From: Zootoca vivipara
Taxonomy: Eukaryota
Assembly (NCBI RefSeq): GCF_963506605.1
Contig: NC_083283.1
Span: 67,332,001 to 67,396,000, forward strand
Length of the DNA: 64,000 nt
Direction of reading: 5' to 3'
The position numbers were made by a program, and so were the translations under genes. Position 1 is the first letter of the stretch. Every line of letters starts with the position of its first letter. Below the pieces are notes generated by a model. That model ran no database searches, was not told the DNA's origin, and saw only the letters and a program-made list of their open reading frames with translations. This document shows, piece by piece, positions 17,634 through 62,965 of the stretch.

Positions 17634-18458
17634 TAGTTAAAAATGGCTATTGGTTTAAGCTAATAAGAGAGTAGTCCTATGGATATGTAGTCAGACATGT
17701 CCCACTGAATTCAGTGAGTCTTACTCTGTTAATTGTGTATAGGGCTGCAGCCTCAAGTACTTTAAAAGATGGATTTCCCCTCTAATAAGGGTCAAATCCT
17801 ATGGCCACTTACCTAGGACTAAGGTTGTAAACCTATACAGCATTACCTGGGAATAAGTCTCATGAAACTAACTGAGACTTGTGGGATAACCAGCCTCATA
17901 TAACCAACATGCTTACTGTAAGTCTAATTAATGCATGAAGAGGTTAATACCACAGAGTAAGCTGCCCAGCCAGGCTTAGCTATGTCCACTTCACTTTGGA
18001 GGAACTAAGTAATCAAGCCTTTGTTCTCCTCAGTCTACCTGAGAAGCTTAGCATGTGAAGAGGTTTGAGCTGGTTGCTTCAGCTCAACTGCATGGCTCTC
18101 ACAAGCCAAAATTGTGTTCCTATACCAATAATATTGAAACTTTCACCACTTTGTAACTAAATTAAGTTTTACCGCCTGTGCAACTTTTCTGAAGCACATG
18201 AACCTGACCTTTGAGGAGTTTGTAAGCAAACCATTTTTTAAACTTACCAATTGTGTGGTCTTTTTCTTATGCAGGGGGAAGAAGGGAATTTGGAAGGAAA
18301 CTTTTTAAGGGACATTGTATTATAACTGAGAAAAGAATTGTCCAGTATGAACATCATCTATTGGTTCATTACTTCTAAGGAGGATTGGAAATTTCTCAGG
18401 AAAACTAAATTTTGGCTAGGGTGTTGGTAATTACCGTAATGGCTTTTAACCAGCTTTT

Positions 18459-18815
18459 GGGACGGGGGTGGCGCTGTGGGTTAAACCACAGAGCCTAGGG
18501 CTTGCCGATCAGAAGGTTGGTGGTTCAAATCGCCGCGACGGGATGAGCTCCCGTTGCTCGGTCCTTGCTCCTGCCAACCTAGCAGTTCGAAAGCACGGCA
18601 AAGTGCAAGTAGATAAATAGGTATCGCTCTGGCGGGAAGGTAAATGGCGCTTCTGTGTGCTGCTCTGGTTCACCAGAAGTGGCTTTGTCATGCTGGCCAC
18701 ATGACTGGGAAGCTGTGCGCCGGCTCCCTCAGCCAATAAAGTGAGATGAGTGCCGCAACCCCAGAGTCGGTCACGACTGGACCTAATGGTCAGGGGTCCC
18801 TTTACCTTTACCTTT
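18459..18815 (+). mobile_element. Sauria SINE, full length, followed by captured flank
   Basis: GGGACGGGGGTGGCGCTGTGG head, B-box-like GGTTCAAATCG, (ACCTTT)n tail. TSD TAACCAGCTTTT at 18447-18458, recurring at 18912-18923 and 18927-18938. Confidence 0.93.
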
Positions 18816-18912
18816 ATCCCTTTAAAAATCCATTGCCTTCCCTGTGGAACCAACTGCCATAATAGTTACCAACAGTTATAAGGTTGAAGCGGACCTCTGC
18901 TTCAGAGTATCT
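18816..18912 (+). repeat. 97-bp dispersed duplicate of 37740-37836
   Basis: 96/97 identical by manual alignment. Confidence 0.95.
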
Positions 18913-20554
18913 AACCAGCTTTTACCTAACCAGCTTTTACTGTTTCCACCAAAAAAAACCCAGGATAATCAAAATTGATCTAATAGACTAATGAAAATAA
19001 ATGTCCAAACCTTATTATGAAATTTGACAATGCTTTATAATTATAGTTTGATTTAGAATACCAAGAGCCTTATCTGAACCTGTACCTCAAAGAAACCGTA
19101 AATGAACTTCTGAAAGAGAAAATGGCTTGTTTGGCAATGCAGTTGAGCATTAAACAAGGAATGGGGATGATTATGGTTAATGGTCATATTAAGCAAATGA
19201 ACAGCATTCAGACAATTCCTTTTCTCTTGGAATGCTATTCCAGCCACTAGCAGCACCTCAGTTGCTAAATGCATGTATTTGCCTTGACCACTTCAAATCC
19301 ACATAATGGAATGTTATTATTATGAAAAAAGAAAGAACTGCAATACACAATAAAGGTAGCACGTCAGGAAGATGGCTAGGCTAGAATCCTTCTTCCCGAT
19401 ATCCAGTTTTCGCTGACCGTGATTTACTTTTGATTTTTAATTCAGAGACAGTGTTCATTCATGTGAACCCACACTGGCAGTCTGAACTGGTACAGCTCAG
19501 ACACAGATTTATGACCTCATATGCTATTTGTGAGAACAAGGCCTCAGTGAGGATAATGAATCAAATAAAAATTCCGCCCCCCCCCTTCAGGGCTCCAATT
19601 GGAGGTCAGGAGCTCCCAGATCATGCACATACTGAGAAAGTTCATGTGCTTGGCAAAGTGTCCAAGGGCTATGTGCTACTTTGTAGTGGATTGTTGACGC
19701 TCAACTATAAAATACACACAAAACTGGCATATGTTAGGTAACTAAGGTATATGTATGTAAAATCTCTGGCTTTCCATTATTTTTTTTCCCTAGCTGGATG
19801 AAAAGATCTCTTCCCTTAGGTGTTAATTTTTTATTGTTTTTAAACCCATTTCCAGTTGTTTTGTACTTTTTTAATTTTTAATTGGTTTCATGATATGACT
19901 GGATATCACCTTCAAACATGCAAAAGGAGATTCATAATGAACAGTATGAACAGACAGAGAATTTTGTTGCACACATATTAAAGGGGATTTCTGCCCATCA
20001 AATCTGACATGATATGCACTTTGTGCTTGTTTATTGACTAACAAGTAATATATATATATAGGAGTACAAGAATGGAAGATGCAGAAGTTAAATACACAGA
20101 TTTAACACAGATTTAACACAGAAAATGGAAGTTTGAAAGCAAACTCTGTGAAGAAAAAAATTGTACTGAAAAGAACAGAGACACTGGGAACACTGGTGTT
20201 TTGTTGGGGCAACTAAAATCAAACTTTGAAGACAGCAGACAGGAATATATGAAGCTGCTTTATGCTGATCCAGATGTTTACTGATCTAGCTCAGTAAACC
20301 AGCATTGCCTACACTGGTGGGAAGCAGGACTCTGGGGTTTCAGGTGGAGGCTTACCTGGAGACGCTGAGACCTTTTGCATGCAATATATGTGGCTTCATC
20401 ACTGAGACATGTACCTTTCCTGGGCAGACGTAGATAAACTGCTTTGATTTTGATTTTTTACATTCACGTGGTATATAATTTTTTAATGAAATAAATATGA
20501 ATAGAAAGCTGTGGTATTATTTGGAAAAGTTCCAAACAATTCTTTACTGTAAAC

Positions 20555-23617: not shown

Positions 23618-26007
23618 TATACTTGTTAACCACATGAAAGTCACTTCCTGACGTTAATTTTTTTAAAAAATATATTCTAGTTTTCAAATGACTGAAGATT
23701 TTGACACATTTTTCTGAGCATTTGGGGTCAAAAGAAAGTAATTCAAAGCATTTCATTCTGAATCTGCTAGACAGAGCCAGATAGAGGATGGTGACAGGGG
23801 GGTGTCCCACCCCCCCTAACATTTCACTAATATCTTCATTTTTATGTACACTTTCCCCTAATATATGCATTTTTGTAAACATTGTTTTGGGTGGAGAACG
23901 GCACCAAAATTCAGATAAGTATGATTTTCAAAGGTTAGCTGTGTTTCAGTTCACATAGGGTTTCTGAAAGTGTGAAATTGACAGCTCAGGCTTTAAATGC
24001 ACACTGAACTGAATTTCTTCCCCATTCCCTACATATGACTAATATCATGCACACACTTGTCACAACATAAACCTTGTCAAAAGGAGATAATGAAGATGAG
24101 ATTGTTTATTACACTATCTTAATACACATAAATTGAAATGAAATTGTTGTTTTCCTTATTGTCCTAGTCATTTACCATGAGATCTAACAACTTCTATTTT
24201 TATTTTTTTCCTAAAGAGGTTGAACCAGATATCTCAAAGTGCCTGAAGATTACAGAGTGCCACTGTCTGTTTTTGGTGTTAAGGGCATATGAAAACAATG
24301 AAAGCATGCTTGGTACACTAAAATTCCAGGTTGCCTCAAAATACAACATTTAACACCTGGGCTAAAGCACAAACCTCTGTCAAGCCTCCTGACTCCTCCA
24401 GAAAGTAGAGAAACAGGACCAATTGCTATTTTTCTTGATGAGGTGTTGGAATAGCTGACTCCACTCCTGAAACATTAATTCTGCAGTCCTGTATGAACTG
24501 AAATTCCCACTGAACTCAGTGGGACTTGCTTCTGAGTAGACATGCAAAAGATTGCCCTGTAAGTCTAACTGGTGGTACACTAACTGGTGGTACACTAACA
24601 GCCAACTCCTTTGTGTGTGTGTTTTGTGTGTGTGTGTGTGTATGTGTTTCTAATATACGTAATTTAGCTAGTACATAAAAAGATATGACCACCCCACAGC
24701 AGAGTTTGTTCATGGTTGTGACTCCTGCTCCCTGCCCTGCAGGCCTTTTTCCCAACTGGCCTGGGAGGGCAGAGTCCTGATTGACTCCAGCTACAATAGC
24801 TACAATTGCTGAACAGACTCTTTGGCTGGTATATTGTTTAGGGGGTATTGTTGTGGGGAGAGGAGGGTTGTTGCTATTATTGCTATTACTTTTTGTGTCT
24901 TAGTTTTAGACAAGATTTATGTGGAAAGTGCTCAATTTGGACATGTTTTATTTATTGTTTATGACTACTTTTGTTATGTTGTAATTGTGAGTTTTTAATG
25001 TTGTGAGCTGACTTGAGCATACCGGTAGTTTGGACTATGGAAAAGCAGCACATAAAAATAAAGGAATGTATGCGTGTTTTTCCCGATGAAGCTTATTGTG
25101 CTTACGTTACCGGGAATTCAAGGCGGAGGAAAGGGGGCAACAGTATGGCAATGCCAAACTATATGGTTGATTGCCATGGTTGATGTGGCCTCCTTCATGC
25201 ATGAGGATTGGGGTAATTTTCCTCATCCCCCAAAAGGTTATGCCCCAGACTACTTCCCCACACTTAACACTGGCTCTCAAGTCCACACTTCAAAAGACTT
25301 TCATCAGAACAGAATGAATTACTACATTTCCTATTTCTTTAGACATTGTATTCTGTTTAGTTACTCAAACAATCTCAAGTATGGAGGAATTTTTCTTTTT
25401 CTAACCATACTCATTCTAGGGAAAATTCTCTCCTGTCTCTCACAGACTGCAAACAAAAAAGTGGAAAGGTGTGATCACATCTTAAGCTTGCCACCACTTG
25501 AATGAAACCCTTTGACCTTCCGGGGGGGGGGGGGAGAGAATCTGTTGTGACTTGTGAATTTCACACAGAAAATGATTGTGTTTGTAAAGCAGTCTGGAAA
25601 GAAGCTAATTGCCCAAATGAGGCCTATGGTTTTAGATTATTTTTTTAACGTCTCTGGAGGAAGGCAAAACTCAAATTCAAATCATTTTCATTACCACATG
25701 ATGAAAGCGTAATGAATTTCGAAAAGTAATAAAAGATTAGTTCAATGCAAGTCCTGAAAGCTGGATGTGAAGTTTTGTTCAAAAACATGATGATGTGCTA
25801 AAGACCACAAAGACAAATTCCAGTTTGCAAAACAGTTTTTGTGACAGTCTTTCTTTATAAAGAAAACCCAGCTTTCTTTATAAAACAAACAAACAAACAA
25901 AAACAAAAAACAAAAAACAAAACCTGTACTATGGAGTTTTCAGCTGCATGGTCAATTGTGAGTCATCCTCTATGTAAAGAACGGAAAGCTCAACTAATAG
26001 TTGATTA

Positions 26008-26362
26008 AGGTAAAGGTAAAGGGACCCCTGACCATTAGGTCCAGTCGTGACCAACTCTGGGGTTGCGCGCTCATCTCGCATTATTGGCCGAGGGAGCCGG
26101 CGTACAGCTTCCAGGTCATGTGGCCAGCATGACAAAGCCGCTTCTGGCAAACCAGAGCAGCACATGGAAACGCCGTTTACCTTCCCGCTGTAGCGGTTCC
26201 TATTTATCTACTTGCATTTTGACGTGCTTTCAAACTGCTAGGTTGGCAGGAGCTGGGACCAAGCAACGGGAGCTCACCCCGTCACAGGGATTCGAACCGC
26301 CGACCTTCTGATCAGCAAGCCCTAGGCTCAGTGGTTTAGCCCACAGCGCCACCTGGGTCCCC
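26008..26362 (-). mobile_element. Sauria SINE, full length, young subfamily
   Basis: Complete body; TSD AATAGTTGATTA at 25996-26007 and 26363-26374; near-identical to 62611-62965. Confidence 0.95.
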
Positions 26363-35877: not shown

Positions 35878-37388
35878 GGAATGAGTATTATATGGCACTT
35901 GCAAAAGTGCCAGTTCTGCAGTTTTAAGCCATCCAGTGGGCATATCTGGCCCCACAAGTAAACCGGTTCCATGCTCTTGAGAACGTTGAAGTATACTGAA
36001 TCAGAAATGGACTGTACATACCTTAATTTGCCCTGAACACCCCGTGTGAACATAATATTGCACTTATTTACCTGACCACTTGTAGCATTATACCACTGTG
36101 GTACCTGTAAGTGCTCATGTGGCCTACAGCACCCACTTTTCCCATGGCAATTAGGCTTGGAAAAAAGCCCTATTGTAGCCAATAGAAGGGTGTTTTTCCA
36201 GACTAATTGTAGCCCAGGGGGTCTTTTTGGGTAGAGTGTCAATGCTGGTGGGTCGTGGTGGGGAAATAGTTCTCCCCCCCCCCGTGATACCACCACCCTA
36301 TCAAAAATACCTCCTACATCAGAATTAGGCTTGAATAGTACCTACGATAGTGAATACTCTACTCTCTCAAAAATCTGTATGGCACAGTCATTGCAATTAT
36401 CAACATAAAAACAGCAAGATCTCAGTTCATTGTGAGTAGACACAGCTTTCTGAAAGGTAGCAGAAGGTGTTGAAGTGTACACATTATCTTCTGTTTTTGA
36501 ATACAATATATGGGGCAGCTCCCTGTAAGTTTCATTTTCTCTCTTTCTTTCTCATTTTTTAGTTAAATCAAAACTGAGAAGTCATTTTTCTCCCTTTCAT
36601 TTCTATAATCTTTGAGGTGTTTTTTTAAAAAAAAAAACCAAATTTTTTTCCTTTTTTGTCTCTGTTTAATAATGTACTCATTAGCTCACCTTATTACCTC
36701 ACTGTATTCCAAACTGTGTTCATTCAGGCAGAAATAGCTAAAGAATGCCTGATACAGGTTAGAAAACAGACAGCTTTCAGGAATCAGGCCTGTTTTCTCA
36801 TCTTGCTGTCTCATCAGTACTGAAAAACCTACTTTTATTAAGAATTCTGGTTGTGCTTTGCTTTAATTAAGTCCAATAGCAACATGTCTTGGGTCAGATG
36901 GCTTGTCTTTAAGACTCTAAAGGCACAAATAGAGAGCATTATCCAATTCCTTACATGAAAATAAGGATTCAGCATGAGCTAATTAAAAATAAAACTAGGA
37001 AAAATTCAATTTGCTTACACGTGGCAGGTTAATGCAAGGAATCAATGGTTTTACCATTTACCATCTCATTGTATATATGTGTCTTAACTTGCTTTAATCA
37101 TATTTCTTAACAATCTTACTTCACCAGTAAAATATGAAACAGAAACACTGACTTAAAGGTCATAATAAATAACAAGATGAAAGATGAAAAAAATATTTTT
37201 ACATAATTCTAGTAGCACCTTTAGGATCAATTAACAGCTGTCTTATTGCAATTTTTTTTAGAGAAGTTGCTGAATTACAACTCATTACCAAACTAAAAAC
37301 TATGGAGAGACCTGGTCTGAATAGAGATATTGGATTCATGTCCCATTATACATACTAAAGCTAATTTTGGTCATCTATCCCTTTAAAA

Positions 37389-37739
37389 GGGATGGCACTG
37401 TGGGTTAAACCACAGAGCCTAGGGCTTGCCGATCAGAAGGTCGGCGGTTCGAATCCCTGCAACGGGGTGACCTCCCATTGTTTGGTCCCTGCTCCTGCCA
37501 ACCTAGCAGTTCAAAAGCATGTCAAAGTGCAAGTAGATAAATAGGTACTGCTCCAGCGGGAAGGTAAACAGCGTTTCCGTGAGCTGTTCTGGTTCGCCAG
37601 AAACGGCTTAGTCATGCTGGCCACATGACCCGGAAGCTGTACGCCAGCTCCCTCGGCCAGTAAAGCGAGATGAGCACCGCAACCCCAGAGTCGGTCACGA
37701 CTGGACCTAATGGTCAGGGGTCCCTTTACATTTACCTTT
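37389..37739 (+). mobile_element. Sauria SINE (donor locus of the 97-bp flank)
   Basis: Near-full body with an intact B box GGTTCGAATCC; TSD TATCCCTTTAAAA at 37376-37388 and 37739-37751. Confidence 0.93.
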
Positions 37740-38175
37740 ATCCCTTTAAAAATCCATTGCCTTCCCTGTGGAACCAACTGCCATAATAGTCACCAACAGT
37801 TATAAGGTTGAAGCGGACCTCTGCTTCAGAGTATCTGACAAAGTAAATACACCTGAAACTGACTTAAATGAGTAGTTTGCATGATTATGGTACCATCAAT
37901 CCAGCTGCTTCTTTTACCAACATGTTATCTGCATTGGGTGCAACATAATACTGAATATAGACATGCACCCGAGTGCATGGTATAGTAGTGCGAAGAAAGA
38001 AAGATAAAAGTTCAAATGTGCATGGTGTAATGCATGAATTTTCAGCTCAATACTGTAATATCTTCTCAGAAGTAGGTCCTGTGAAGTTTAATAGGACCTA
38101 TTGCCGGGCAAGCATGTACAGGATTGTAGCCTCAGTCACTCAAACTAAATGCTCCTGGCTGCTTTAACTTGATAA

Positions 38176-38955: not shown

Positions 38956-39091
38956 CAGACATAGGCAACCTTGGCTCTCCAGATGTTTTGGAACTACAAA
39001 TCCCATGATCCCTGACCACTGCCCCTGTTAGCTAGGAATCATGGGAGTTGTAGTTCCAAAACATCTGGAGAGCCAAAGTTGCCTATGCCTG
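38956..39091. mobile_element. Palindromic hAT MITE
   Basis: CAGACATAGGCAAC...GTTGCCTATGCCTG; TSD ATCTAATG at 38948-38955 and 39092-39099. Confidence 0.92.
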
Positions 39092-62610: not shown

Positions 62611-62965
62611 AAAGGTAAAGGTAAAGGGACCCCTGACCATTAGGTCCAGTCGTGACCGACTCTGGGGTTGCGCGCTCATCTCGCATTATTGGCCGAGGGA
62701 GCCGGCGTATAGCTTCCAGGTCATGTGGCCAGCATGACAAAGCCGCTTCTGGCAAACCAGAGCAGCACATGGAAACGCCGTTTACCTTCCCGCTGTAGCG
62801 GTTCCTATTTATCTACTTGCATTTTGACGTGCTTTCGAACTGCTAGGTTGGCAGGAGCTGGGACCAAGCAACGGGAGCTCACCCCGTCACAGGGATTCGA
62901 ACCGCCGACCTTCTGATCAGCAAGCTCTAGGCTCAGTGGTTTAACCACAGCGCCATCTGGGTCCC
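62611..62965 (-). mobile_element. Sauria SINE, full length, young subfamily
   Basis: TSD TCTGCATATCATA at 62598-62610 and 62966-62978; CpGs largely intact. Confidence 0.95.

Follow-up and report, generated by a model that had tools for sequence, protein, structure and literature searches.

Flanking sequence behind a SINE in Zootoca vivipara was probably acquired by DNA repair from a neighbouring SINE rather than by 3′ transduction

Background

A transposed element that lies together with the flank of its source between the target site duplications (TSDs) of the recipient has the arrangement produced by 3′ transduction of the L1/SVA type. In a 64,000-nucleotide stretch of the Zootoca vivipara genome, here called the window, a SINE at 18.5 kb is followed within its own TSDs by 97 bp that also stand behind a second SINE 19 kb away, which raises the question of whether this flank travelled with the SINE or was joined to a SINE already resident. 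A preliminary description of the locus had left two options, either (a) 3′ transduction from a local source element or (b) a template switch or ectopic repair event that invaded the paralogous SINE tail, and had regarded both as shuffling of unique sequence. We compared the two loci with each other, with copies of the same elements across the 1.44 Gb assembly and with public contigs from other sequencing runs.

Results and discussion

Structure of the recipient and donor loci

The recipient locus comprises the following features, all on the + strand:

18447..18458, +, left TSD of the recipient SINE, at a site that is empty in three other organisms
18459..18815, +, recipient SINE of Sauria/Squam1 type with an (ACCTTT)n tail; other genomic copies are at best 91-93% identical
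18807..18813, +, putative stretch within which the template changed from recipient to donor
18816..18912, +, captured segment, a copy of 37740-37836 (Penelope-like element, 3′ end region) that carries five donor-private variants and one recipient-private change (18867)
18911..18940, +, perfect 15-bp tandem duplication (units 18911-18925 and 18926-18940) containing both right-hand TSD copies
18921..18926, +, TTTACC, likely the repeat with which the SINE tail ended before the event
18927..18938, +, right TSD, presumably the original copy from the SINE insertion

Judging by the tail, we provisionally take both the recipient and the donor SINE to be members of the Sauria/Squam1 family, whose members have a head related to tRNA and a 3′ part related to Bov-B. 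The (ACCTTT)n tail and a TSD beginning with T, which PMC13295347 gives as characters of Sauria SINEs, are both present here. The recipient TSD, TAACCAGCTTTT, is found to the left of the SINE (18447-18458) and twice to the right of the captured flank (18912-18923 and 18927-18938), enclosing SINE and source flank together. The doubling on the right, already noted in the preliminary description, turned out to be part of the perfect 15-bp tandem.

At the donor locus we distinguished:

37159..37234, −, inverted piece of the Penelope-like element 3′ tail
37260..37388, +, Penelope-like sequence 5′ of the donor SINE (end of the ORF and 3′ UTR), terminating in the left donor TSD
37389..37738, +, donor SINE, about 6 nt short at its 5′ end, within the Penelope-like element
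37739..37844, +, right donor TSD and remainder of the Penelope-like element; the captured segment was templated by 37740-37836
37912..37915, +, first T4 3′ of the donor SINE, 75 nt past the end of the copied segment

The donor is intact, with SINE, both TSDs and Penelope-like sequence continuous. Its TSD, TATCCCTTTAAAA, measures 13 bp (37376-37388 and 37739-37751), one base more than had been claimed, while the reported lack of a T4 before 37912-37915 was borne out.

Among side observations in the window, two minus-strand SINEs 36 kb apart (26007-26361 and 62612-62965) are 98% identical as against 87-91% for most full-length pairs, and probably represent a young subfamily; each is bounded by a TSD of its own. 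A palindromic dispersed repeat at 38982-39065, probably MITE-like, gave below-threshold scores to the mir-5408 and mir-9457 hairpin models on both strands. A composition scan for host-gene exons produced no convincing candidate.

The captured flank derives from a Penelope-like element

The flank had been described as unique, a view that did not survive a genome search with 37740-37900, in which at least 41 matches were found (40 of 45 candidates scored). Copies of the family elsewhere run upstream into the sequence left of the donor SINE (37260-37388), and a longer copy (L007) encodes a GIY-YIG endonuclease (PF01541, 22.8 bits against a cut-off of 22.6, E 1.1e-4), a domain that in these elements follows the RT domain; the element that surrounds the donor SINE (37159-37844) is therefore Penelope-like, truncated and partly inverted. 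Both the GIY-YIG ORF end and the partly inverted tail arrangement agree with what PMC11167929 describes for Penelope-like elements. The captured flank is thus the 3′ end of such an element, and what moved was repeat DNA rather than unique sequence. On their own terms, the SINE and the Penelope-like element are each ordinary members of their families; what is unusual is that they are combined here.

The donor's Penelope-like sequence upstream of the SINE (37260-37388) shows no difference in 129 positions from another copy of the family, as against five private changes, two of them indels, in the 97 bases of 37740-37836 (Fisher p=0.014). These five changes downstream of the donor SINE seem older than the split from sample X1 described below.

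Hammerhead ribozymes have been reported for Penelope-like elements, and a motif resembling the hammerhead core is visible by eye in family copies; Rfam gave no hammerhead in the four loci searched. On inspection we rejected a capture ending at a ribozyme cleavage site: going by the motif, the expected site lies about 30 nt past the copied end, in sequence missing from the donor.

That the enzyme of the Penelope-like element itself moved RNA from the donor locus is very improbable. The captured piece is sequence of such an element and ends 6-9 nt before the end of the donor's Penelope-like sequence (37844), and the reverse transcriptase of these elements starts internally on its own RNA (PMC11167929). 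Most family copies, however, end at +211 to +224, about 120 nt beyond the recipient's end at +97 to +100 in the same numbering, which makes such mobilisation a poor fit; the donor copy lacks this downstream part, and neither the nearness of the source nor the targeting to a SINE tail would be explained.

The donor supplied the flank but not the SINE

Segments 18816-18912 and 37740-37836 are identical at 96 of 97 positions, as first described, the sole difference being at 18867. In the whole 1.44 Gb the 18-base junction of SINE tail and flank has just two occurrences, against none for a reversed control, which speaks for a link between the two loci beyond chance and led us to reject a SINE subfamily bearing a Penelope-like tail. 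The preliminary description had set a genome-wide search with the 97-mer against the chance that it was a common repeat subfamily tail; the flank by itself proved repetitive, yet it is not the tail of a SINE subfamily, and with the SINE attached it exists only at these two loci. All five donor-private flank variants recur in the recipient and are absent from the 20 other full-span copies examined, a set of distinct copies taken from 38 loci after duplicates and partial copies had been left out. A third match to the 19-base pattern of donor variants, on C1, has no Penelope-like context and was dismissed as chance.

The SINE bodies give a different picture. Recipient and donor differ at 41 of 351 aligned sites, 20 of 293 when CpG sites are set aside or 15 of 288 by a stricter rule, in line with the roughly 40 differences, more than ten of them non-CpG, counted at the outset. 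The contrast between body (41/351) and flank (1/97) is significant over all sites (Fisher p=0.0006), less so for non-CpG sites (p=0.034) and weakest on the strictest non-CpG count (p=0.083). Only three of 24 non-majority states of the donor body are found in the recipient, the majority having been taken from 29 copies selected as best matches to the recipient; two of the three are common in other copies (7/29 and 9/29) and the last lies at the truncated 5′ junction of the donor. An identical block at 18753-18805 is not diagnostic, 9 of the 29 other copies likewise showing no difference over 18753-18798. With five of five private variants shared in the flank against three of 24 states in the body, the donor is therefore the source of the flank and not of the SINE.

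The captured piece starts with the donor TSD, and the direction of transfer is therefore from 37.7 kb to 18.8 kb, as originally proposed. At 18806 the recipient keeps C, the common state, against a private A in the donor; this places the switch in the last tail repeat provided that the A is older than the event, an order compatible with X1 record 7 (see below). The template lies 18,924 bp from the recipient on the same strand, and homology to it is confined to the entry side, with 350 bp at 88% identity to the left and none to the right. A resemblance of donor 37898-37920 to the right end of the recipient (7/8 matches) was at chance level and was discarded.

Alleles in other genomes

We compared public contigs from four of 24 listed runs, representing organisms B, C and F and sample X1; such contigs show presence and not absence, and alleles can drop out of them. 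In B, C and F, which are about 5% diverged in the right flank, the site is empty, one contig apiece joining the left SINE edge to the right flank. Record 22 links 18458 to 18964 through 38 letters and record 13 links 18433 to 19213 through 107, while in record 29 the empty site is shown by its remaining 105 letters and by variants up to 19037. The X10 run, from organism F, also appears to be without about 170 bp of right flank (19040-19210), a contig joining across. Word shares for X15-X20 (0.75-0.82) were uninformative about the junction.

Sample X1 shares its organism label with the samples nearest to the window and differs at 17 of 680 bases (2.5%). Its record 5 (18141-18497) contains the 5′ junction of the SINE and continues 39 letters into the element. 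Tail and flank are found in a single unbroken contig, record 7, with two other letters and no gaps, followed by 215 unlike letters. This record fits the donor locus, and a second copy of the flank at the recipient would be expected to interrupt the contig at 18912. Record 8 is a right-flank contig whose exact match begins at 18921, preceded by 17 letters that do not fit; it has 23 letters on the SINE side, below the 31-letter rule for bridging. We modelled four hypothetical alleles (the reference, the empty site, flank without duplication and SINE without flank); a match starting at 18921 is expected from the last of these alone. The comparison with related genomes suggested in the preliminary description thus gave empty sites in B, C and F and, in X1, indirect indications of an allele that probably carries the recipient SINE without the captured flank.

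The flank-bearing recipient junction was seen in none of the four runs compared, three being without the SINE and X1 seemingly without the flank, and it is this absence from the independent data that leaves some room for an assembly or library artefact, with donor flank attached to the recipient locus by chimeric joining of SINE tails. We regard this as improbable: the copy is unlike the donor at 18867 and 18806, the assembly consists of 48 contigs for 1.44 Gb, and a simple mis-join would not leave the locus, copy 97 nt, return and duplicate 15 bp.

The same alleles bear on the first of the two original options. True 3′ transduction, or a switch of the reverse transcriptase between two SINE RNAs at insertion, would have to treat the X1 allele as a later, exact deletion between TTTA repeats that restored a canonical tail and TSD. 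The enclosing recipient TSD is as such a scheme requires, read-through of the donor is possible, and one difference in 97 is compatible with an age above the X1 split. The option nonetheless found no support, since the recipient body does not derive from that of the donor, no further daughters exist in the genome and a flank-less allele probably does. Nor does the segment end at a terminator or in a new tail (it ends at 37836-37839, with no added tail save the TTTACC that X1 also has), and the nearness of the source goes unexplained; we give this reading as little weight as the artefact.

A probable repair event in the SINE tail

The option of a template switch or ectopic repair reaching into the paralogous tail, which had been thought the better fit to the divergence contrast, is supported by these data. 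We consider it likely that capture took place at the DNA level, by break repair or replication template switch, and not by retrotransposition. With moderate confidence we favour a course in which the resident SINE was broken in its tail and only one end invaded the nearby paralog, from which 97-99 nt were copied before microhomology allowed rejoining and a 15-bp tandem duplication was left. The SINE would have inserted with a tail of TTTACC TTTACC and a 12-bp TSD, and its tail would later have suffered a break or a stalled fork. The left end may then have invaded the same-strand paralog 19 kb off, to which it is 88% identical over 350 bp and perfectly so over 53 bases close to the end, and been extended 97-99 nt past the homology. 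After its release, the new strand would have used two bases of microhomology (CT) to prime on the right end and been extended by 13 nt; re-annealing through the 5-nt microhomology TTTAC would have left the 15-bp duplication. The allele predicted by these steps reads, in order, resident SINE with its first tail repeat, last tail repeat of the donor through 37836, CT, 13 bases from the recipient right end, TTTAC, and the original last tail repeat with TSD. RAD51 and polymerase theta, taken over from known pathways, are the putative enzymes.

At the exit junction CT is followed by 13 locally templated bases and then TTTAC. The 2-nt match by itself is at chance level, and the imperfect 6/8 register of the microhomology is one of 17 equally good registers in 300 nt; the exit site is not specially favourable. 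Duplication and capture could have been separate events, and a switch at a replication fork leaves an identical sequence, indistinguishable here from break repair.

The distance to the template bears on whether RNA was involved. From 92 SINEs in 1.454 Mb we extrapolated roughly 91,000 copies genome-wide, and the chance that a random diffusible RNA template should come from a source this near is about 3e-5, which favours a DNA template in cis. We weighed this against secondary target-primed reverse transcription, in which the Bov-B endonuclease re-nicks the resident junction of tail and TSD, donor read-through RNA is copied and the cDNA anneals to the resident SINE. The flank-less allele has TTT in its tail 10 nt before the TA of the TSD, the Tn-TA target signature of Bov-B and Sauria SINEs (PMC13295347), and the donor has no T4 until 37912. 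SINEs inserted right behind the tails of other SINEs are seen elsewhere in the genomes of four runs (12, 16, 8 and 24 contigs), yet a SINE head within 40 nt of a tail was found at none of the 92 tails in 1.454 Mb. An RNA template would moreover be expected from anywhere in the genome and not from 19 kb away, copying stops 75 nt short of the T4, and the duplication lies entirely to the right instead of flanking the insert. On balance such a route appears unlikely.

Frequency of flank sharing

In 1,454,000 contiguous bases around the window, this locus provides the only flank-sharing pair among 92 SINE 3′ ends and the only doubled 3′ TSD among 41 TSD calls. Four other calls with a distant TSD were rejected, being two long target duplications, one TA/CA repeat and one 9-base chance match. 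The two long duplications (2/41 calls) belong to Sauria SINEs on the minus strand and are unusually long, with 67 bp (95.5%) at L178 (G000:C8:66694542-66695048) and 80 bp (96.3%) at L080 (G000:C8:67267974-67268498).

Comparison with known systems

Earlier work has dealt with one-sided invasion and with breaks in LINEs that were repaired from endogenous copies. The same class of outcome, one-sided ectopic recombination with non-canonical termination, has been obtained in mammalian reporter cells (PMC5104497), where, as here, entry is by homology at one end, copying continues past the homology, the ends are rejoined by microhomology and the breakpoints become complex when the second end makes additional short template switches. 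The reporter differs in its I-SceI cut, its sister or plasmid template and its tracts of hundreds to thousands of bases; here the allele is natural and apparently inherited, its template a SINE paralog of 88% identity and its tract 97-99 nt long.

Templated insertions are also known from polymerase-theta end joining, SD-MMEJ and MMBIR, in which a short local templated insert, here 13-15 nt, likewise creates the microhomology for the final join; unlike in those pathways, the main insert came from 19 kb away with entry through repeat homology. Class 2 templated sequence insertion polymorphisms (TSIPs) resemble the locus in that a genomic patch is copied in, the donor stays intact and one junction shows microhomology, and in that the allele is probably polymorphic within one species label (PMC5110952). 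Their donors are described there as distant and seemingly random, with a proposed RNA-derived origin, whereas the donor here is local and chosen by SINE homology. The likeness to L1/SVA-type 3′ transduction ends with the enclosed flank: the body is mismatched to the source, there are no daughters elsewhere, the end is not at a terminator and the flank was probably added after insertion. A literature search of partial coverage returned no paper on this exact SINE pattern.

Conclusions

The capture is probably not a transduction, and we see in it a natural instance of a known repair outcome; with the flank likely added after the SINE had inserted, the locus would only mimic 3′ transduction. The transferred sequence is a fragment of a repeat and shows no sign of function, and since such pairs are rare locally (one among 92 SINE ends) the biological weight is low unless the process recurs genome-wide. 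One doubtful route to recurrence is that an ACCTTT tail of two repeats rebuilds the Bov-B Tn-TA target at the SINE's own 3′ TSD and that resident copies are therefore re-nicked and repaired from the nearest paralog. If true, this would bring recurring false 3′ transductions and local movement of flanks in squamate genomes, and the inference of source elements would be misled. As it stands, the locus illustrates in compact, natural form, and with what is probably an allele series of three steps (empty site, SINE, SINE plus flank), a repair outcome so far studied mostly in reporter cells, and it warns that an element and a flank between TSDs are not alone proof of 3′ transduction or of an active source element.
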